From: Candidatus Calescibacterium sp.
GTDB taxonomy: Bacteria; Calescibacteriota; Calescibacteriia; Calescibacteriales; Calescibacteriaceae
Length of the DNA: 12,294 nt
Direction of reading: 5' to 3'
NCBI GenBank assembly: GCA_032249135.1
Contig: JAVVGL010000039.1
Location: 1-12,294, forward strand
In this document: one piece after another, positions 131 to 12,152 of the stretch
Layout of the letters: each line of letters opens with the position of its first letter
How positions within the stretch are numbered: position 1 is the first letter of the stretch
Position numbers and translations under genes: made by a program
The notes under the pieces: generated by a model
The model's database searches: none
Seen by the model: only the letters and a program-made list of their open reading frames with translations
What the model was told of the DNA's origin: nothing

Positions 131-1555
131 CTACTCAACCTTCTTCCTAACATAGTAAACGGTATTAGCTGGCGCAAAAGGACTTGTCCAGAATACCCAT
201 AAATAACCCATATCATCTATACATATATCTTCTTCATCATATGACATATCTATTATTTTCTCCTTAATCCACCCTTCATTCGTTCTAATGTAAAGAAACG
301 ATTCACTTAACAAATATATATTTCTCCTAACATCAAAGCTCAAAAGCGGTGCCCATCCTATTTTCCCCACAAATTCCCACACTATATTTTCTATATTATC
401 TCCCACCAGATCCCAGCTATGCAAGTAAATCTTTCCTCTCCACATATTCGCATAATAAAACTTGCTTCCTTTTACCTTCATAACAAAGTTATCTAAAACT
501 CCTGCGAGTGGTTCGTTATATATATCCACATTTTCCATTTCCAGCTCCTTCATCCTCCTTATCCACTTTAACCTTTTCTCCTTCGTATCTATCTTCAAAA
601 GAAGACTTTTAACTTCTACTCCTTTTCTGTCAATAGTTGGTCCCTGCCATAAAACTATATATAAATTACCATCTGGTCCTATAGCTCCTGAATCAATTTG
701 AAAAACATCAACTATCTCCTTTGCCTCAGGTAATAATTCAGCTAAATCATATAAATCCCATCCTCCTTCTTCATTCTTTACTGCAAAAATATGGCGTGCT
801 TCAGGAACAAAAAGAAGTTCAGGGGGATAGTCCTTCCTATATCCTGGCGCTTCCCAATGATAATAAAGACTATAACTCATAGCTACCTTCTTTTCAAAAG
901 CTGATACCCAATCAGGGAAAATAAGTGGTTCCTTAATCCCAGTACTTTCTAATGGATATATAGGGAATTCATATGGAGGGAAAAAATCAAAAACTTTTTC
1001 TTCCCATCTCCCATCTGTCTCCCTCATAAAATATATCAAATAGCTTCTTATGGTAGTATATATAGACTCATAGCTTCTATCCTTAAGTCTATAATCAGCG
1101 GTAACAAAAAGATGTATTCTTCCTTCTTCATCTACATCAAACTCAGTAATTTGAAAATTAATACGGTGATCATCTAAATCTAAACTTTCCTTGTTAAATC
1201 TATATTTTTTCCCCAATGATTCCTTATTATGTAATAATATCTCATCTTTTATCTTTTCTCCCACAATTTCTGGTCCATGCCATTTATCTTCTCTCAAATC
1301 GTAAATGAAAAATAACAAATCTTTATCGATATCAATAAACATTACATAAACTCTGTTATTCTTACACAACACTTTTAACCAACCTAATCTCAAACCTCTA
1401 TCTCCCTTATAGAGAATTTTTGGAGGAGGCCACTTGCTCTTATTTGTTTCTGTTAAAAATTTACATCTTGGAGCTAACGCAAATACTGACACAAAAATAG
1501 TAATAAAAGAGTTCAAAATATAAAAATAAATCTTATTCCTCATCTTTCTTCCCAC
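131..1555 (-). CDS. Putative immunity protein: exported or lipoprotein-like beta-propeller-type protein (start may be ATG at 1543)
   Basis: 474-aa ORF abutting the toxin stop codon (0 bp gap). It has a basic then hydrophobic N-terminus followed by Cys (MRNKIYFYILNSFITIFVSVFALAPRC) and repeated blade-like motifs (VDEEGRIHLF, IGPDGNLYIV, IDDMGYLWVF). The immunity role is inferred from position. Confidence 0.75.
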   Translation of the reverse strand: MGRKMRNKIYFYILNSFITIFVSVFALAPRCKFLTETNKSKWPPPKILYKGDRGLRLGWLKVLCKNNRVYVMFIDIDKDLLFFIYDLREDKWHGPEIVGEKIKDEILLHNKESLGKKYRFNKESLDLDDHRINFQITEFDVDEEGRIHLFVTADYRLKDRSYESIYTTIRSYLIYFMRETDGRWEEKVFDFFPPYEFPIYPLESTGIKEPLIFPDWVSAFEKKVAMSYSLYYHWEAPGYRKDYPPELLFVPEARHIFAVKNEEGGWDLYDLAELLPEAKEIVDVFQIDSGAIGPDGNLYIVLWQGPTIDRKGVEVKSLLLKIDTKEKRLKWIRRMKELEMENVDIYNEPLAGVLDNFVMKVKGSKFYYANMWRGKIYLHSWDLVGDNIENIVWEFVGKIGWAPLLSFDVRRNIYLLSESFLYIRTNEGWIKEKIIDMSYDEEDICIDDMGYLWVFWTSPFAPANTVYYVRKKVE

Positions 1556-4500
1556 TTATCTTTTAAGCTTAAACAAATCCATATTTAATTGAGTTTTCAA
1601 ACTTGAACACTCCTCACCATATCCCGCAATCCTACACCATTCTTTCACACGATTCACACTATGCTCTACTGCATTACCCCGCCCAATATAATGGTATAAC
1701 CTTCCATCTCTACCAGGTTGTCTTCCTTGGTAAGTTGCTGGACTATCTTTGTTCACGCGACAATGAGATGTTTCCTTATCAACTGATGCCGGCTTACATT
1801 TCATCATGCGCAGAACTAATTCTCCATCTCCCCCATACGCCCGTGAAAGCACATCAACCGTTGAGACAAATCTACATACTGTATCCCCTATGCCACACTC
1901 AGTTCTCCATCCCCAAAACCAGCCAGTAATGAGTCCTTCGGGTTTATATCTAGGTGGATCTTCTTTAACATTTGCCCAATTAAAGTCTTTCTCCACGGCG
2001 TTTGAGTGAGAGAAGAAGTCTTGGAGTGTGTGGAGTTTTTCCCCGAGTTGTGCTGGGGTTAGGGGGATGTTGATTGTTTGTAAAACATAGTTACAGACCG
2101 TATCCCAGTATGGTTCCCAGGTGATCTGCTGTACTGTTTTATAGGTTTGGACAACTATGGTTTTCATGCATCTTACAGACCTAAACCTGATTTCTTCTTT
2201 ATATCCTACTATAACTCGTTCTTCACCTACCTTTACTCTTACCCAAAAGCAAACAACAAGACAAACCCTTCTCCTCTCGTATTTTGGTCTCGTTTCATAT
2301 ATTGGAACCATTTCTTTGTAAGCTCGCAAACAACTTGATTCAACTTCTCTCACCTCTTGAACCGGAATCTTAACCGTTTTTACAACTTGCCTATATTTTT
2401 TAACATTTTCACATCTTTCAGCCCACCTTGTTTGCGGTATAAGGTTTTGTTTAGCCACATTAACACTATTTATGATATTGTCGTAATTGACTACACCATT
2501 ATCAAAGTGTAATGTTTGATTGTATTTATCTGCCAGCCCAGTATTTAAATCCGTATCCCTATTACCCTTTACTACCTCTCTTACTATTTCTTCTTTCAAA
2601 CCAAGCTTCCAGTATAAAGCCTCCCAAGTTATTCCTTCGTGAATTGGAGAAGATACGGGTCCTGTCAGAAGAGATTTTAACTTAAATCTTATATCTCTGA
2701 TTTTACTTAATATTTCGTCTATTTTTTTAACTGCTAAGTTTATATCTGCAAGATATTCAGTAATGTTAGTAAATTCGATTTCACGCTCGAGCTTTTCACT
2801 CCTTTCCTTAGATACTTGCGTTACTTCTTTTATTAATTTTTTTGTTCCTTCTTGAAATTTTCTAAATTCCGTTGGATCTAATTTTGTATTAAGACCTGCG
2901 GTTTTCAGTGCAGCCTCTACAAAATGTTTGGTAACAGCATTCCATACAAAATCTTCAATAGCATCTCCAATACGTTCAAAGAAAGCTAGGATATTTTTTC
3001 TTACCCAGTCAGCAAGGTCTTTTGAAACTTTTTCAACAACTTTACCTACTGCCTCATAAACCAATGCTTGGAAATCATCTATTAATATTTCCAAATTAAT
3101 GAACGCCTTTGCGGCAAGTTCAATTATATCTTTTACGCATATTGTAATTATATGGAACTCTTCACAGCGAAATTTCACTTTCTTAAAAAATCCTTCTATT
3201 TCAGGCCAGCATATTTTGCCAGAAACTTTCGCACAAGCTGTTAGGAATGCTCTCAAATTTACGAAAAATTTTTCAAGAGTACTTAAAACTCCATCTACTA
3301 ATCCTGCCAATGTTTTTATTTTTTGAAAATCCTTCCCTGTTGCTTCTTCAAGGGTCATTTGAACTTCAAAGAGTCCAAAAGGGTCGTAAAATCTTTCGGG
3401 ATTATTCCTTGCGTAAACATAAAGGTTCGCATCTCGGGTTATGTCTGGCTGCAAATACCTACCTGAAAATGGGTCATAATATCTCGCTACATTGTAGAAA
3501 AACCCTGTTTCAAAATCATAGTACATTCCGGGAAGGGCTAAGGGTATTCTGTGATTTCCACTCACAAGCTCACCAAAAGGTGAAAGCTCTCTTTTCCACA
3601 CAACTTTACCTCCTTCATCAGTAGCAAACCAGGGAACACCTTTTATGTCATTATGAACATAAAGGAAGGTATCTTTTTCGGGCGCATATATCTTCAAACA
3701 CTTCTTACTCTTACACAATATCCATTTTAAGTCCTCACTGAAAATCTCAGAAAAATGTAAGAATTTAAAATCAAAATTAAGGCTCAGGTCAGGATAAACT
3801 GGGAATTTTCCGCTCACTATATCATCAAGGCTCAACGGCGTGTATAAAGTAACATATCTTTCTTCGCCAGTTGTATTATCTTTAACTTTCAAAAGCAAAA
3901 CATTTATAGGAAAGCTTTCTTTGTTCATTTGCTGCTTATAATACGATGAAACTAACTTGAGATCAATAAAAACTTTTTCGCCCTCTTCTATAAACATCAT
4001 AGTAGTAACTAGTCCAGTAAATACGGGGTACCAATATACTCCTTTTGAGTTAGCCTTTGCACCCCAAACACCGTCAGTGATTATGTTATTGAAAGTAATT
4101 CCTGGAAATTTTGCCGGAGAAACTCTCACGGTATACCCAGAAAGTTTAATGTCTGAACTTATCTCGTCAAATATTACAGTATTGTTACCCGATGCCTTAT
4201 AAAGAACTAACGATACAAAATTATTGAAGCTAACAGGAAGATTAGCTGAATAATTTATCTCCGGAATTTCAAAAGTGATACCTGAACCAGAATTATATTT
4301 TATCTTTAAAGTCAAATCCATATTATCAAATGAAGGAACCGGAGCATAAGTTGAATTAGAAGTACTACATCCAGATGAATCACATATTTGATAGAAAGCT
4401 AAACAATAATTTCCTGAGCTAACTTTAACACAACCAAATCTTAATTTACCATATGGCACAAGTTCCGCCTGTCTATCTACCAAATCTATGGTAAAACCTC

Positions 4501-7500
4501 CTTCACCACCTTCATATCTTACCTTGGCTGATATGTTAAAGCTATTTTCTTTGAAGAAAAATTTAGATGCTAAATATACTTCACCTCCTCCGTACATTCG
4601 CAATTTTCCGTCTTTTACTTCTACACTTGCATTATTAGGGAATAGAACTTCCCACATATCTTTTTTCAGTATATCAAACGGATCATAAAATGTTGCCTCA
4701 AAGGGTTCAAGAACACCATCTTCATCTGTGAACATAGCCTCGGCACACAAAGTTATGCTATCTGACATGTTCTTGAGTTTTTCTTTTACTCCTACCAATT
4801 TTCCGCTTGACCACACAAAATCTTTTGAACCCTCATAAAGCTTGTTTTGACCAGAGTATATAACCACCCTTTCAGATAAAATTTTGTTCCCCCCTAAATT
4901 ACCCCTATCCCAAACATAATAGAGATTGAAAGAGCAATTTGGACCTTTTATGCTTTTTAGAACTCTTCTACCTTCGCTATCGTAAGAGTATGAAGCCAAA
5001 ATTTCTGTACCAAAAGAATCTTCAATCCTGACCTCACTTAAAAGTTCTCTCTTGTACTTCATCCAAAAACCAGTATCATTGAGAAAATCAACAAACTGGG
5101 CTACCCTGCCTGCCGTATCATATTCGTAAGCTGCTACTTCCTTTCCGCTGGTATCTTTGATAAGAGTTAGTCTGTTGTCTGGTTCATATTGGTAAATGTA
5201 TTCTTTTGTTTTTGAACCTTCCATATACTTTGTGTATATTCTATTGCCAAATTCGTCATATTTTATAGTCTGAGTTAAACCATCTGATGAACTCCATTCT
5301 AAAAGTCTGTCGGCTCTATCGTATTTGTAATCTATTATTTTTGCTTCGCTCCCAAGTCTTTTTGAAATTGAAGTTGTATTCCCTCTTATATCTTGCTCTA
5401 CAACTTGTTCTGAAATTGTCTCTATGCCGCTTTTATATCTTATTATTCCTTTCCTGCTTCCTATCCTTGAAGCTTCAAAACTCACACTATTTCCATATTG
5501 TCCGCTAAAATAACCTTCTGTAAAAACTTCCTTTCCGTTGTAAAGAACAGAACCATCATCACGATACTCAAATTCTGCCCATTTTGGACTTCCAAAGAAT
5601 TCAATCCCAACCAGATTCCCATTAATATCATATTTATATTTTGTTGAATAATTCCAGTCTTTAATTTGTAGTTTCTCTCCTGAAACCATTCCTAATTTAT
5701 TGTAAGAGATAGCAACTTTGAAATCATCTGTTTGAGCTCCTGTTTTATTTCCTTTACCACCCGATACAACCTCGTTCAAAGGATTTTGACCATCATAGAA
5801 AAATTTCACAGTTTCATCTTTGAATCTTAGTGTAGTGATTCTGCCCATTTGGTCATATTCAAACTCTGTAAATTCGCCTTCTGCTTTGTCAATCCGTTTT
5901 ACTCTCCCTGTTTCATCGTAGGTAAAGATAGACCAACCGGCATCTCCCCTCACTTCGGCTAAAACATCATCCATAATACCATACAGTGTCTGGTATTGAA
6001 CTACTTTCCCCGAAACTCCTTCATATTTTACAAGATTTGGAAATCCTGGTTTTTCAAATGCTTGAACTATGGCTAAATCTTCAAAATTTATTTTAAAACC
6101 TCCGTCAAAATATGAGTATTGGACTGTAACCTTGTTGTTTTCTTTTACGCTTATAATTCTTCCTTCGGCATCGTATTCATATTCAATTATTCTTCCATTA
6201 AAGTTATAGCGAACGAGCCTTCCGAGCAAGTCATAAGACCATTCAAGATTCTCAATAATATTTCCATCTTTATCTAACTTTACATCTTTCACGATATTCC
6301 CAAAATTGTCAAAATCTCTTATTACCTCAATAGAACCCGGAATTACTGTTCTCTGTCTTATTGAATCTGGTTTTATATCAAAGAATATTTCTGCGACAAT
6401 TTTTCCATATGAGCTTATTCTGTGAGTGTGATCCCACAGTCCTTCAACTTTCATAACCTCAATGCCATTTCTCATGAATGTTTTTCTTTTTCCTACATCG
6501 TGTATAACTTGCTCAACTATATCTTCTCCATTTGGTCCTGCTTTTTCCTTTACTATCTTATAAACTTCTCCCGTTTCGTCATAAAAGTATCTTTTTACAT
6601 TTCCGTTTTCATCTACCTCGTAAAGCACTCGCGGAAGAATTATCGCATGTGGAGTAACTTCTGGCTCCCCTTCAAATTTTACAAGTTTTGTTCCAATTGG
6701 ACTTTCTATTCTGAGAGTTTGCGAAGCTCTGTCTATTTTATATATCGTTTCTCCAACTCCACTTTGCTGAACTCTTACCTCATCTCTCTCAGGAGAAATA
6801 TTTATAAGAATTTCCTTCTGACCTCCGCTCCTTGCATCATTATCCCACCAGGATATTTTGATACACCTTACTTCAAGCCCTAACTCTCCTTCTTTCCTTT
6901 GAGCACAGCCTTCATTATAATCTCTTATAATTTCTATAAAACCCTTTTCCTTTTCAACTCTCATTGAAGTGTATTCATCTAAAAACGGGTGGTAAGTATA
7001 GTAGACGGTCTCAACAGGGACACCTTCTTCATTTAAAAATGAAACAACAAGAGGGTTTCCTCTCTCATCAAATGCTTCATACAAAATTTTCAGAATACCA
7101 GATTCTGTTGGTAATTCTGTCGGCAATTCTACGACTTCTGTTGTAGATTCAGCTGAAACTTCATATCCGCGCGGTGGGACTTGAAAATCAAACTTTTTAT
7201 AATTCCCCAAAATATCTTGAGCTTCTACTCCGATTACTTGCCAAGACTTCAAATTTGCTACAAGAACACTAATTTTATTTTCTGATATTTGAGCATCAGC
7301 GCCACCTACTTTTACAAATGCAACAGGAACTTCATCTTTCAAATTCCCTTCAAATAATACTTTGTCTCCTATCCAAGAGATATTCAAATTTAAATCAGGA
7401 GGTGTGCTATCAAGATTTAATTTCAATGTTCTAAATTCTTCTACATTTCCAGCTTTATCTTCTGATCTGTACAAAAGAGTGTATTTACCGTCTGGAAGTT

Positions 7501-8592
7501 CTAACATGAACTCATTGAGGTTACCAAGATAGATTTGTTCTGATCCAAGCTCTACAAAAACACTTGCTCCATCGCTTCCGGCAATGTTATCTTGGACGAA
7601 AATTTTGATTGGAGTCTTTGGAGTTACAAAAACATCGGAACCAGATTCATATTTTGGATTACCTATAAAAACTATTGATACAGGTGGAGTGTTATCTACT
7701 GCAACTTCACCATATTGCGGATATTCTTCAGATTCTATAATCTCAACCGTAATTCTGGATTCTGCCGATAATGAAGATAGTAGATTTTTCAAGTTTTCCA
7801 AAAGCTCCTGAGATACTACTTCGCCCTTTATCTCATATTCACTATCTTTTTTCTGATTTATTTCAAACTCTATTTTCTTTTCAGGGAGTTCTGCTGATAT
7901 TTTTGCACCTGAGCTTGAAAAACTTTTTGTAATTTCTATCTTTGCACTTTTAATTCCAGTAGCAACAAGAACTTTTATTATATCATCTAATATTTTCCGT
8001 TGCTCTTCTTTCAGTTCCCCTTCTATTTTTTCGTTTATAAGACTTGCAAATACTGTGAAGTAAAAGCGACCATCCTGAACAAAATTGCCTCCTTCATCTT
8101 TTCCATCCCACAAAATCTGAATGTGATATGTGTTTAAATCTTCGTAGGGTTTCAAATAATGCTCGTATCTTCTATATAAATTCTTGATTAAACTATCGGT
8201 AAGGTATGTTTTGGTTAAAATTGATTTCACCTTGCTCCCTTGTGCATCTTTATATACAGCAAGTCCTGAAACATATAAACTTGCCTTATCTTCAATCCTA
8301 TCTGAATTAACAACAACGGAAAGTCTGATTTTGTGTTCATCAAACTTGCCATCCTTGTTTTTGGGAGAGATAATGTGAGGAGACGGAACAAAATCTTTTA
8401 TCAGAATTTTCGGCTCAGCTGAAAAATCCTTTTTAACTTCCCTTTTTTTACAACCAAAATCAATAAAAGAGAGAAATAAAAGAAAAACAATTGCTAATGC
8501 TGATTTGAATATTTTATGAGTTAATCTTGAACCACTAAATTGCCCAACTTGCTTTCCGGTATTCCTACCCCCCCCGACCTTCCGGAAATCAT
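1556..8592 (-). CDS. Rhs/YD-repeat polymorphic toxin with lipoprotein-type signal peptide, FlgD-Ig and Ig-like domains and a C-terminal Het-C/VWA7-like Zn-hydrolase domain; frameshifted at a G8 tract near the 5' end (ORF track calls 1556..8230)
   Basis: YD repeats (YDLLGRL, YDAEGRI, YDETGRV, YDQMGRI, YDRADRL, YDEFGNR) and the Rhs core signature PGMYYDFETGFFYNVARYYDPFSGRYLQPD...NLYVYARNNP...DPFGL (ends ~3371). FlgD-Ig-like ISPKNKDGKFD...WDGKDEGGNFVQDGRFY and Ig-like DNTPP...YRSEDKAGNVE...DSTPP. The frame is open from 8593; the ATG at 8592 is in another frame. Confidence 0.9.
1991..2034. repeat. 44-bp exact direct repeat, copy B (encodes HTLQDFFSHSNAVE in the toxin)
   Basis: Identical to 64-107, 1927 bp apart, same orientation. 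Confidence 0.97.
8568..8575 (-). repeat. Poly-G (G8) tract at the 5' end of the Rhs gene, a candidate phase-variation switch
   Basis: C8 on the + strand in an AT-rich context. G9 (or G6) would put ATG 8592 in frame with the Rhs ORF; G8 gives a stop at 8521-8523. Confidence 0.6.
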
Positions 8593-8780
8593 TTTATCTG
8601 CTTTCTCACAGACCAACATCTTGTAGAAAAATATAATCATTCAAATAAAAATTTCAAGAAATTGAGCGGTTTTGGAAGGCTTGTCAGATAATGGAAAGAA
8701 AAAGGTCAGAACTAAATTTTTTATTTTTTTAAAGAAAAACAGAAAAAATTTCCTAAAATCTATTACACTATTTTTTATCA

Positions 8781-8787
8781 GGGGGTG
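8781..8787 (+). promoter_or_regulatory. Shine-Dalgarno-like site for the 8795 gene
   Basis: GGGGGTG 7 nt upstream of ATG 8795. Confidence 0.55.
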
Positions 8788-8794
8788 AATATAA

Positions 8795-9469
8795 ATGAAG
8801 GTATCGCTATCGGTGGAAGCACTTGAAGTTCTTGAGGATAAACTTGGGAAGGAAGGAGCGAAAGCTTTTATCAGGTCCATAGATGAAATAATATCAGAGA
8901 TAACCGAACTCAAGTGGAAGACATCAAAAGAAGAATTACTCAACGCAATAAGAGAAGAGTTCATAAACAAAAACATCTTTGAAGAAAGAACACGCTCAAT
9001 AGAAGAAAGAGTTAATTTTTCAAGGTCAGAACTTGAGGCAAAAATAGATAAATTCAAATCAGAACTTGAGGCTAAAATAGAAAATGTTAGAGTAGAACTG
9101 GAAAAAGTGAAAGCAGAACTTGATGCGAAGATAGAAAAAGTTAGAGTAGAACTTGAAGCAAAGATAGAGAAAGTTGGAGCAGAATTAGATAAAGTCAAAT
9201 CTGAGCTTGATGAAAAGATAGAGAAAGTAAGAGCTGAACTTCTGAGTGAGATAGAGAAAGTTAGAGCAGAAGTAGAAAGATTGAAAATTGAGATTGACGC
9301 AAAAATAGATAAAGTAAAGGCAGACCTTGAATCTCAGATACGAAAGTTTGAATCTCAAATACAAAAGAGTGATATGAAACTTAATTTTCTTATCATTTTG
9401 ACTATTATTGCTATTGCTCTTATGAACCCAGTTGTAGCTGAAATCATAAAATCACTCCTGAAACTCTAA
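8795..9469 (+). CDS. Coiled-coil membrane-anchored protein (DUF1640/CCDC90-like head-stalk-anchor architecture)
   Basis: Short helical head (LEDKLGKEGAKAF), repeated ELEAKIEKVRV-type 11-residue units mixed with 7-residue units, and a single C-terminal hydrophobic helix (LNFLIILTIIAIALM). Confidence 0.8.
   Translation: MKVSLSVEALEVLEDKLGKEGAKAFIRSIDEIISEITELKWKTSKEELLNAIREEFINKNIFEERTRSIEERVNFSRSELEAKIDKFKSELEAKIENVRVELEKVKAELDAKIEKVRVELEAKIEKVGAELDKVKSELDEKIEKVRAELLSEIEKVRAEVERLKIEIDAKIDKVKADLESQIRKFESQIQKSDMKLNFLIILTIIAIALMNPVVAEIIKSLLKL
9028..9330 (+). repeat. Imperfect 33-bp/21-bp coding tandem repeats
   Basis: For example agaacttgaggcaaaaatagataaattcaaatc (9028-9060) and agaacttgaggctaaaatagaaaatgttagagt (9061-9093), followed by further degenerate units. 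Confidence 0.75.
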
Positions 9470-9474
9470 TCAAT

Positions 9475-10206
9475 ATGAAAAACGAAAGAGAAAATAAAAA
9501 AGAAAGAGAAAATAAAATGAAAAAAATCAGAAAAAAATTCCCATACTCATTTCCCAAGTTTTTAACTTTTCTTGTTTTAGTAAGTCTGAGCTTCATATTA
9601 CAGTTCTCATTACAGTTTTCAATTTTCCTATCAAAAGCGTTGGCAGAAGAAATAAAAAATCAAGAGGAAGAAGAATGGAGAAAAAACCTTATAATCTCAA
9701 ATATACTTCAAGCTCCTTTTGGAATACTTGGTTTAGAGTATCATAGAGGATTATCAAGGAACATATCAATAGGTGGAAGCTTTACATATATTTCTCTTGA
9801 ATTTTTCAGAGGTTTCAGAGTTGGTCCAGATTTAGGATTATTTCCCTTCGGAAAAGCACCAGAAGGTTTTAATCTGCTTTTGTCTCCCGGGTTCCTTTCA
9901 GGAGATGTTGGAATTGAAAAAGAATTCACTCTTTTGATAATAAAAATCAAAGCGGAAGCAGAAATTGGTACTTTGAAAGGTATAAGTTTTCCGGTACTTT
10001 TAAGATACAACTGGATATTTGGTAAAAGTGGATTGGGCTTTGCACTGTCGGCAGGTGCAGGACTTCATTTTCTTGCTCTTACATTTGAAAGACCTATCGG
10101 AGAAATTAAAGTTTTAGGGATAATAAAAATTTCAGGAAAGGCAAAAGTTCCAATTCCCTTACCACCTTTACCAATTTTCAATTTGAGTTTGGGTTTAGGG
10201 TTTTAA
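9475..10206 (+). CDS. Putative outer-membrane beta-barrel protein (DUF3575-like); start may be ATG at 9517
   Basis: Signal peptide ending ALA|EE, amphipathic Gly/aromatic beta-strands (LGLEYHRG, FALSAGAGLHF), and C-terminal FNLSLGLGF with a terminal Phe typical of BAM substrates. It starts 5 bp after the upstream gene. Confidence 0.7.
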   Translation: MKNERENKKERENKMKKIRKKFPYSFPKFLTFLVLVSLSFILQFSLQFSIFLSKALAEEIKNQEEEEWRKNLIISNILQAPFGILGLEYHRGLSRNISIGGSFTYISLEFFRGFRVGPDLGLFPFGKAPEGFNLLLSPGFLSGDVGIEKEFTLLIIKIKAEAEIGTLKGISFPVLLRYNWIFGKSGLGFALSAGAGLHFLALTFERPIGEIKVLGIIKISGKAKVPIPLPPLPIFNLSLGLGF

Positions 10207-10460: not shown

Positions 10461-10517
10461 TGGATTTTTTTATTTCTTTATTTTTCATTATTTCATTATT
10501 ATTTTTAGCTTTTATTT

Positions 10518-12152
10518 TCATATCACTATTGGCTCCTTGAACTCTCCATATACTTTTTTCAAAGCTTTTGTTGTTTCTCCAATGGTTGCTCCATTTTCAA
10601 GTGCTTCAATCAAATAAGGCATGACATTTTCTCCTTTTTCTGCTGCTCGTGAAATATTGTCAAGTAGCTTTTGAATTTTTCTCATATCTCTTTTAGATTT
10701 GAATTCTTGAAGCTTTTTTGCTTTTTCTACTGCCTCACGAGGTCTGAATATCTCAAACTTGTGTTCCGATGCACCATCTTCTTCCCTAAATATATTAACT
10801 CCGATTATTTTTTTCTTTCCTTGCTCAATAAGAACTTGCTGTTTATAAGCTTCTGAAAGTATGATTGATTGAATAAATCCATCTTTTATCGCCTTCACCA
10901 TACCTCCGTAGTCTTGAACTCTTTTCATTTCTGCCCTTATTTTCTCTTCCATCTCATCTGTGAGTTTTTCTATAAAGAATGATCCTCCGAGTGGATCTGC
11001 TACTTCTGGTATATCGGTCTCAAAAGCTAATATCTGCTGAATTCTCAAAGCTATTTTTGCGGAGTGTTCTGTTGGTATTGAGTAAGCTTCATCATAAGCT
11101 TCTGTGAATATAGATTGTCCACCCCCTAAAACTGTTGCAAGAGCCCCTAATGTGACTCGTGCTATGTTAAGCAAAGGTTCAGCTCGTGTTAGTGATGCTC
11201 CCCCGCATGCGACTGCAAATTTCATCGCCATATTCTTTTCATCTTTTACTCCGAGCTCCCTTGTGATGTGAGCCCATAGCCTCCTTGCAGCTCTATATTT
11301 TGCTACCTCTTCAAAAAGATTGTGATATGTGCAGAAGAAGAACGTGACTCTTTTTATAAATGAATCGGGATCAAGACCTCGGGATAGAACTTCATTTACA
11401 TAGACTTTTGCGTTCTCAAATGCAAATGCTACCTCCTGATAAGCTGTTGCTCCTGCTTCCCTTATGTGATACCCACAAACTGATATCGGATTAAATTTTG
11501 GAACATACTTTGTGCAGAATTCAATAACATCACAAGCAAGTTTTACAGAAGGCTCTACCGGATATATCCATGTGCCACGAGCTATTATTTCTTTTAGTAT
11601 ATCGTTCTGCAATGTTCCCGTAAGTTTCTCAAAAGGTATTCCTCTCTTTTTTGCAACTATAAGATAAAGAGCCATAATCTGTGGAGCAGTTCCATTTATT
11701 GTAAATGAAACGGAAATTTTGTCTATCGGGATACCATCAAAAATCTCCATCATATCTTCTACTGTATCCACTGCAACTCCGACTTTTCCAACCTCTGGTA
11801 ATGCAACTTCTTCGTCTGAATCATAGCCCATCTGTGTTGGAAGATCAAAAGCCACTGAAAGCCCAGTATTCCCCTGTTTCAGGAGAAATTTAAATCTTTC
11901 ATTTGTTTCTTTTGCCGTTCCAAATCCTGCATATTGTCTCATTGTCCAAAGCTTATCTTTATACATAGTTCTGTATGGCCCCCTCGTGAAAGGAAACTCT
12001 CCTGGATCTCCGAGTTTTTCTTTATAATACCGATTTATATCTCCCAAATCATCCGGCGTATAAAAAATTTTGTAGTTATATAGTTTGTAGTCTGAATTTG
12101 AATCGTTCCATCCGTTCTGTGTTTCTTTTTCTTTTGAATTCTCTTTTCGCAT
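10518..12152 (-). CDS. Methylmalonyl-CoA mutase family (AdoCbl-dependent acyl-CoA mutase) large, substrate-binding subunit
   Basis: Hallmark motifs PGEFPFTRG, WTMRQYAGFG, GLSVAFDLPTQMGYDSD, GTLQNDILKE, GYHIREAGA, DPLGGS and IIGVN. No DxHxxG cobalamin-binding domain, so this is a split enzyme. Confidence 0.95.
   Translation of the reverse strand: MRKENSKEKETQNGWNDSNSDYKLYNYKIFYTPDDLGDINRYYKEKLGDPGEFPFTRGPYRTMYKDKLWTMRQYAGFGTAKETNERFKFLLKQGNTGLSVAFDLPTQMGYDSDEEVALPEVGKVGVAVDTVEDMMEIFDGIPIDKISVSFTINGTAPQIMALYLIVAKKRGIPFEKLTGTLQNDILKEIIARGTWIYPVEPSVKLACDVIEFCTKYVPKFNPISVCGYHIREAGATAYQEVAFAFENAKVYVNEVLSRGLDPDSFIKRVTFFFCTYHNLFEEVAKYRAARRLWAHITRELGVKDEKNMAMKFAVACGGASLTRAEPLLNIARVTLGALATVLGGGQSIFTEAYDEAYSIPTEHSAKIALRIQQILAFETDIPEVADPLGGSFFIEKLTDEMEEKIRAEMKRVQDYGGMVKAIKDGFIQSIILSEAYKQQVLIEQGKKKIIGVNIFREEDGASEHKFEIFRPREAVEKAKKLQEFKSKRDMRKIQKLLDNISRAAEKGENVMPYLIEALENGATIGETTKALKKVYGEFKEPIVI

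Follow-up and report, generated by a model that had tools for sequence, protein, structure and literature searches.

The stretch of DNA analyzed here, hereafter called the window, is a whole contig of 12,294 bases (JAVVGL010000039.1) from the 2.1-Mb, 87% complete genome of a Candidatus Calescibacterium sp., and our subject is a cysteine-rich insertion in the C-terminal toxin domain of the large protein that it encodes. According to the list of open reading frames and their translation, the longest minus-strand frame (1556-8230) codes for 2224 amino acids (aa) from a GTG codon. The product matched RHS_repeat (PF05593) of Pfam in four stretches, with an E value of 7.1e-25, and two NCBIfam models, YD_repeat_2x (TIGR01643; 50.5 bits versus a cut-off of 15.8) and Rhs_assc_core (TIGR03696; 56 bits versus a cut-off of 32.5, aa 1550 to 1620). 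By these family matches, the gene at 1556-8230 encodes an RHS/YD-repeat polymorphic toxin. The RHS core ends with DPFGL at aa 1616, in agreement with the PxxxxDPxGL cleavage motif, and the C-terminal 609 aa after it are made up of a helical linker (aa 1621 to 1856) and a 368-aa toxin domain (aa 1857 to 2224; positions 1559-2662, minus strand).

The toxin domain carries the motifs PIHE, D38, HFD, HTLQDFFSH, and HCRVNKD. All of the conserved residues that the passage on Tox-HET-C in Zhang et al. (2012, PMC3482391) lists for that family, i.e., H, [DE], HxD, HxxxDxxxH, and Nxx[DE], are present, and the same passage relates Tox-HET-C to zinc phospholipase C (PLC) and S1-P1 nucleases. An alignment of 16 sequences showed H8, D38, H52, D54, H211, D215, and H219 to be invariant and N304 and D306 to be nearly so. 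A phmmer search of 1.84 billion representative proteins yielded two matches at an E value of at most 1e-3, a 149-aa fragment (P0003, 63% identity) and a protein of 311 aa (P0004, E value of 4.7e-4). The latter and its 11 relatives carry PF25107 (VWA7_N), two of them together with PF07217 (Het-C), and a precomputed PF25107 label is also attached to P0007, a homolog of the window's toxin. On the strength of its motifs and relatives, we file the domain as Het-C/VWA7_N-like. A scan of the domain against NCBIfam found nothing, and searches of the PDB sequences with the domain or with the 16-sequence profile returned only chance-level rows.

When an AlphaFold2 model of the domain was compared with 48,161 solved chains by VIA-align, the six best matches turned out to be zinc PLCs or S1/P1 nucleases without exception. 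The PLCs came first, with Z scores of 7.6 for Bacillus cereus PLC (1ah7), 7.6 for clostridial alpha-toxin (1olp), and 7.4 for the Listeria enzyme (8cqm), 140 to 145 residues being aligned at a root mean square deviation of 4.0 to 4.3. The nucleases of the S1/P1 type followed at 6.0, 5.5, and 5.5, and the next, unrelated row scored 4.4. The domain is thus predicted by modeling to adopt the all-alpha fold shared by zinc PLCs and S1-P1 nucleases.

Into this domain is set a stretch with six cysteines, at aa 1940, 1967, 1990, 1994, 2021, and 2046 (codons ending at window positions 2413, 2332, 2263, 2251, 2170, and 2095). The translation bears out the earlier note, made from the DNA alone, both in the position of these codons and in their spacings of 27-23-4-27-25. 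HFDN (aa 1908) precedes the stretch and LGEKLHTLQD (aa 2062) follows it; the central segment RRRVCLVVCFWVRVK begins at aa 1986, with PIY/PKY on one arm and VGE/VGY on the other. The 132 residues from aa 1930 to 2061 include 22 Val, 14 Arg, 13 Glu, 10 Thr, 10 Lys, 9 Ile, 8 Gln, and 8 Tyr and no His. In 200,000 trials in which four cysteines were placed randomly between two fixed end cysteines in 107 residues, a symmetry of this kind with a central gap of at most 6 was reached in 0.28%.

The segment is no standard part of the domain, as had been proposed. Counted between the histidines of HxD and HxxQD, the span is 159 residues in the window, P0005, P0006, P0007, and L002 and 161 in L004, compared with 42 to 69 in 13 VWA7_N relatives (46 in P0011) and with 43, 49, and 46 in three more genomes, which were picked up with the Pfam model in a sample of 301 genomes. 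Since the span is 159 to 161 residues here against 42 to 69 in these 16 relatives, about 113 residues are extra. Judged from the alignment, the cysteine stretch is a true insertion of this size, which replaces a short loop between two helices. As modeled on the alignment with the 13 relatives that lack it and on the gap counts, it covers aa 1930 to 2060 (numbered 1 to 131 below; positions 2051-2443, minus strand), with the six cysteines at 2093-2413.

The insert was found in seven near-full sequences of one small clade only, namely, the window, P0005 to P0007, and L002 to L004. The long homologs of the toxin are three RHS proteins with 86 to 98% identity, and the metagenome loci with the insert are also three, L002, L003, and the divergent L004. 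The fragment P0003 matches L004 as far as the second cysteine (C2) and diverges beyond it. None of 40 other genomes, six of them of the same family, contained the insert, and the insert profile recovered from the window's own genome the gene itself only. Among viral contigs, the insert alignment gave 58 pattern matches and no relative. The 107-aa cysteine stretch matched no Pfam family at E values up to 10, a search of the ESM Atlas with the insert gave no usable match, and in the literature on Het-C, VWA7, Tox-HET-C, Rhs, polymorphic toxins, and phospholipase C we found no paper on such an insert. A mini-intein (HINT) was ruled out as well: the insert has no His and matched no HINT profile.

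The shape of the insert was predicted in two AlphaFold2 runs, which share the register i + j = 128 in insert numbering. Modeled within the domain, the insert had a predicted local distance difference test score (pLDDT) below 50, and DSSP assigned to it two 28-residue strands, at domain residues 81 to 108 and 166 to 193. Modeled alone with a four-sequence alignment, it reached a mean pLDDT of 62, and a strand of residues 2 to 28 was paired with a strand of residues 100 to 126, the means over successive ten-residue blocks being 83, 92, and 66 in the former and 77, 91, and 79 in the latter. These two strands are the outer arms, one at aa 1931 to 1957 (positions 2360-2440, minus strand), with C1 at insert residue 11, and the other at aa 2029 to 2055 (positions 2066-2146, minus strand), with C6 at residue 117. 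The 71 residues between them (aa 1958 to 2028; positions 2147-2359, minus strand; pLDDT 32 to 57) hold C2 to C5 and the cationic tip (positions 2231-2275).

Three independent features of the sequence agree with the register of the models. C1 and C6 add up to 128; so do the two extra cysteines of L004, at 7 and 121, which take the place of W7 and L121 of the window; and the invariant pairs Y17-P111, P27-Y101, and P47-Y81 fit it too. Shuffled sequences reached the observed number of Cys-Cys and Pro-Tyr pairs in 157 of 5000 cases for the window and in 18 of 5000 for L004, which we take as weak support because the criterion was picked after the pattern had been seen. An antiparallel base ribbon of about 27 rungs with C1 opposite C6 is the best-supported reading of the models, and as a beta strand extends by 0.33 nm per residue, the ribbon would be roughly 9 nm long. 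The earlier description of the insert as beta-rich and extended rather than compact thus holds at the level of the models, both of which draw the extended base. Long-stem pore toxins among the weak Foldseek rows mirror the hairpin as drawn and are not evidence, and a transmembrane beta-hairpin or pore stem is unlikely, the arms being charged and devoid of alternating hydrophobicity.

Of the two-stranded, disulfide-stapled ribbon that had been proposed for the whole stretch, only the outer part stood, with its antiparallel arms and C1 opposite C6 in the models; the inner arms are of unequal length (23 versus 27) and are not paired by the model. In its full form, this proposal is a single hairpin of about 62 rungs, longer than 15 nm, with nested C1-C6, C2-C5, and C3-C4 disulfides and a hydrophobic-cationic tip that inserts into the target membrane, and we regard it as doubtful. 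The nearly symmetric cysteine spacing speaks for it, as does the invariant pair P47-Y81, which keeps register 128 far up the arms. The internal prolines (27, 47, 53, and 111 via its partner 17) and both base cysteine pairs, moreover, belong to one parity class, that in which cross-strand disulfides and prolines are tolerated; the chance of this is about 1 in 16. The sums of C2 and C5 (130) and of C3 and C4 (126), in contrast, depart from 128, AlphaFold2 leaves the inner arms unpaired (a helix at 37 to 45, then coil, at a pLDDT of 32 to 45), and the arms are highly charged, unlike amphipathic membrane hairpins.

Comparison of the relatives bears on the same question. The window and L004 share 45% of the insert residues (59 of 131) and 66% of those in the rest of the domain (148 of 225), but the six cysteines are invariant in all four aligned insert sequences, that of L004 included, which tells more than the symmetry of their spacing, and are also present in P0005, P0006, and P0007. 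Also retained in both the window and L004 are one Gly, four Pro, and several Tyr and Trp. The cysteine spacings of L004 are 27-23-6-27-25, and the sole indel over the 131 residues falls between C3 and C4, where the tip of a full-length hairpin would have it. The ratio of nonsynonymous to synonymous substitution rates relative to close relatives was 0.31 to 0.65 for the insert, as calculated from only 6.5 to 8.5 nonsynonymous changes, and 0.15 to 0.18 for the C-terminal core. On these comparisons, the insert appears to be under constraint, though less so than the core.

What is kept at the tip is charge. A cationic run precedes C3 in both proteins (RRR in the window, KKK in L004), and W67 is retained, but the C3-C4 segment changes from CLVVC in the window to CSKPLKC in L004, F66 is replaced by Ser in L003 and P0007, and V63 is replaced by Gly in P0007. 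Because the C3-C4 loop, F66, and V63 vary in this way, the hydrophobic inserting tip on which the membrane-piercing version of the hairpin depends is not conserved, and this element of the earlier note was not supported. The net charge of the insert is +10 in the window and +9 to +15 over the four sequences, that of the core about +1, and the conserved property of the tip in the sequences compared is its positive charge, not hydrophobicity.

Six invariant cysteines could also bind a metal, and the low confidence of the distal 70 residues (pLDDT 32 to 57) would leave room for a compact fold there. An insert that forms a compact beta domain or a cysteine-ligated Zn or Fe-S site is nonetheless highly improbable: it contains neither a CxxC pair nor His, the extra cysteines of L004 form a pair at cross-strand positions, both models show the extended base ribbon, and there is no Pfam match. 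Two outcomes had been set beforehand as refuting the proposal of an inserted hairpin, a compact or metal-binding fold and a segment that is standard in homologous domains, and neither occurred.

The insert lies in a part of the domain that stays constant while the part after it is exchanged. A 42-nucleotide block encoding HTLQDFFSHSNAVE (positions 1991-2032, minus strand), in which the catalytic motif and the junction of the orphan C-terminal halves coincide, has the same DNA sequence in all four main genes (window, L002, L003, and L004) and in the orphans, with the sole exception of the second L002 orphan, which has 3 mismatches. The block is identical even in L004, yet the L004 protein is 57% identical overall. 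Two toxin fragments without a start codon (8571-9053 and 10510-10992) come after the putative immunity gene of L002; both begin 25 nucleotides past the preceding stop, exactly at HTLQDFFSHSN, and each has its own immunity paralog after it. The start of such a cassette (FHTLQDFFSHSNAVEGGKNNGPM) occupies positions 1-105 of the window (minus strand), where it ends at the contig edge, with flanks like those of the first L002 orphan. In close relatives, the N-terminal half with the insert is 92 to 100% identical and the C-terminal half 76 to 100%; the C-terminal half of P0007 is 85% identical to an orphan versus 76% to the window. The DNA comparison looks like half-domain swapping at the catalytic motif, and it places the insert in the constant half; the part that appears exchangeable, the C-terminal ~155 residues along with the immunity gene, starts right after it. 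This position argues against the insert as the determinant of immunity specificity.

The same position, outside the part exchanged with the immunity-linked cassettes, would suit a regulatory or handling element, that is, a lid that keeps the active site blocked before oxidation or release, or a segment for packing into the RHS shell or exit from it. Consistent with this possibility, the insert adjoins the active-site motifs HxD and HxxxDxxxH, and the equivalent loop of alpha-toxin can close the active site, according to a reference cited in the relevant passage of PMC4690130. The predicted ribbon, albeit in a low-confidence model, extends outward from the core rather than over it, and we consider such a function very unlikely.

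The gene next to the toxin abuts its stop codon (positions 131-1555, minus strand) and encodes 474 aa from GTG or 470 from an ATG at 1543. It is the candidate cognate immunity gene, since in L002 and L004 each copy of the toxin, orphans included, has a paralog behind it, in the place where an immunity gene usually stands. At least five paralogs were found, with 48 to 99% identity, all of them ending in YYVRKKVE, and neither Pfam nor NCBIfam assigned the protein to a family. Its size of about 470 aa is unusually large for such a protein. The single hydrophobic segment, at residues 5 to 23 (Kyte-Doolittle 19-residue mean of 2.03), is kept at the N terminus of five of five paralogs, and because of it the sequence suggests that the protein works outside the cytoplasm. 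A complex prediction for the toxin domain and the immunity candidate (score 0.20, mark 0.32) counts neither way.

The toxin domain has 12 cysteines, all of them kept in L004, and the genome encodes a DsbB match (28.9 bits versus a cut-off of 22.1) and a DsbA-like thioredoxin (118 bits); VKOR was not found in the 87% of the genome that is available. From the hydrophobic segment of the immunity candidate, the 12 kept cysteines, the DsbB and DsbA-like proteins, and the rank of PLCs above nucleases in the fold search, we infer a phospholipase-like toxin that acts at the envelope and is able to form its disulfides.

These data also bear on a nuclease toxin of the S1/P1 type, whose basic beta-arm would clamp nucleic acid as the arms of HU and IHF do. 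Three S1/P1 nucleases stand among the six best fold matches (Z scores of 5.5 to 6.0), the passage on Het-C in Zhang et al. (2012, PMC3482391) leaves nuclease or phospholipase open, an arm with a net charge of +9 to +15 would suit this role, and the insert model weakly matched the HU-like 6lmh, although the Z score of 2.7 is not significant. The PLCs, on the other hand, score more than 1 Z unit above the nucleases, the twelve conserved cysteines would be reduced in the cytoplasm, and the hydrophobic segment of the five immunity paralogs fits an action outside it. A nuclease is therefore clearly unlikely.

The reading of the whole that we favor, with moderate confidence, is a clade-specific insertion of ~113 residues that makes the protein a ribbon-armed, phospholipase-fold RHS toxin, with a basic arm tethering the active site to the envelope. 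The insertion occupies the loop that joins the second metal-ligand motif (HxD) to the third (HxxxDxxxH). The first ~27 and the last ~27 of its residues would form an antiparallel two-stranded beta-ribbon of ~9 nm, projecting from the helical catalytic core and closed near its base by a C1-C6 disulfide, while the ~70 residues beyond the ribbon, with C2 to C5 and the conserved cationic, Trp-containing end, would either extend it or fold into a small beta unit at its far end. After release outside the cytoplasm of a neighbor cell, the toxin would be oxidized there, and the strongly basic arm, with its net charge of +9 to +15 (the core has about +1), could tether the phospholipase-like active site to an anionic surface of the envelope or orient it there. 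The formation of the disulfides, the site of action, and the anchoring role are what we infer rather than observe, and anchoring to a membrane or envelope is plausible.

The role so assigned to the arm would be analogous to that of the central loop and the C-domain of clostridial alpha-toxin. According to passages of PMC4690130, residues 55-93 of alpha-toxin, downstream of the equivalent His, form a loop on the side of the active site that is turned toward the membrane, where it contributes to binding, and a separate beta C-domain also mediates membrane binding. A form of the tethering reading in which a free-standing, disulfide-laddered basic beta-ribbon of 9 to 20 nm stands like a lance on the active-site face, as a new type of targeting module, and after periplasmic oxidation docks on or bridges to the membrane or another envelope layer, in a constant half beside a half that is swapped with the immunity gene at the 42-nucleotide block, seems to us fairly unlikely.

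Several observations weigh against the ribbon-armed phospholipase. The VWA7_N model (PF25107) matched the domain with 25.0 bits, below its cut-off of 27.5, and over only 22 residues around HTLQDFFSHSN, probably because the insertion splits the domain. The AlphaFold2 model of the domain was poor overall, with a mean pLDDT of 50 and core helices at 70 to 92, the VIA-align Z scores of 5.5 to 7.6 are middling by the tool's own notes, and Foldseek found no match to the domain model in the PDB at E values of at most 0.001. In the insert, residues 30 to 100 have a pLDDT of 32 to 57, with residues 30 to 72 below 50; VIA-align of the insert model found no known fold, the best Z score being 2.9; and neither hydrophobic nor charge pairing favors register 128 over others. 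The insert alignment amounts to about two effectively different sequences, and AlphaFold is able to draw long hairpins for orphan sequences. The 474-aa neighbor is a candidate for immunity by its arrangement only, and the correspondence of the insertion with the central loop of alpha-toxin, i.e., the same inter-motif region, was drawn by motif order and not by superposition. The evidence as a whole comprises about seven sequences of one uncultured clade and low-confidence models.

Further features were noted in and around the toxin gene. The helical linker from DPFGL to the toxin domain (aa 1617 to 1856; positions 2663-3382, minus strand) contains four cysteines, and in P0006, P0007, and L004 it is swapped for a different, shorter version with fewer cysteines. 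Upstream of the GTG, the RHS frame stays open for 121 codons without ATG, GTG, or TTG and measures 2345 aa from stop to stop. This in-frame 5' extension (8231 to about 8596, minus strand) encodes a lipoprotein-like signal, KIFKSALAIVFLLFLSFIDFGC (…ALAIVFLLFLSFIDFGC), with a hydropathy of 2.18, as seen in the translation and the DNA. An out-of-frame ATG at 8590-8592 is parted from the RHS frame by a run of eight G at 8568-8575. An assembly error could account for the lack of a start, and so could a phase-variable homopolymer or the use of a non-canonical start. In L002, an element of ~150 nucleotides (88-240) breaks up the signal-coding 5' region relative to the window. Because copies of it occur elsewhere in the window's genome (85% identity in C34, 70% in C10), the element looks, by its sequence, like a small mobile repeat; an Rfam scan of the L002 5' region gave no match. 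On the plus strand of the window, positions 8795-9469 encode a 224-aa coiled-coil protein with a hydrophobic C terminus and only sub-threshold, apolipoprotein-like matches, and positions 9475-10206 encode a 243-aa protein with an N-terminal hydrophobic segment and no family match.

With the Tox-HET-C/Het-C (PF07217) and VWA7_N (PF25107) families, the toxin shares the motif set, the all-alpha PLC/S1-P1-like core, and the C-terminal position of the toxin domain, and P0020 is another example of such a domain fused to RHS. The ~113 extra, cysteine-rich beta residues occur in none of the 16 relatives. What is new is the insert, an RHS toxin with a Het-C-like domain being already known.

Among the solved chains compared, the core model came closest to the zinc-dependent PLCs of B. 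cereus, Clostridium, and Listeria, but the domain is not a member of their family at the sequence level, as it has no Pfam or PDB sequence match to them. The membrane module would here be a ribbon inside the domain and not a C-terminal PLAT domain. Should the arm prove real and functional, an internal cystine-stapled ribbon would take the place of a separate C-terminal domain as the surface-binding element of a PLC-fold toxin, a solution that we did not find described in the literature searched. It would also be a rare case of a very long two-stranded beta structure standing alone.

Known Rhs orphans usually begin in the RHS core, whereas those described here start inside the catalytic domain at HTLQDFFSHSN. 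In other respects, the locus resembles the Rhs toxin/immunity loci with orphan C-terminal cassettes that are described by Poole et al. (2011, PMC3150448) and Koskiniemi et al. (2014, PMC3967940), in that it likewise has a main rhs gene, a putative immunity gene, and promoter-less orphan toxin ends with paralogs of that gene of their own. The locus suggests that one catalytic domain can consist of a constant half and a half that is exchanged in concert with the immunity gene, which bears on the diversification of polymorphic toxins and on the part of a toxin that immunity proteins recognize.

Tachyplesin, protegrin, and arenicin are free, cationic beta-hairpin peptides of 17 to 25 residues, stapled by disulfides, that permeabilize membranes. 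As far as its predicted structure goes, the insert is like them in its strong positive charge and in having two antiparallel strands that are linked by disulfides across the sheet, and this is a resemblance, not membership. In contrast to these peptides, it is an internal insert of an enzyme, measures about 113 to 131 residues, and is not amphipathic.

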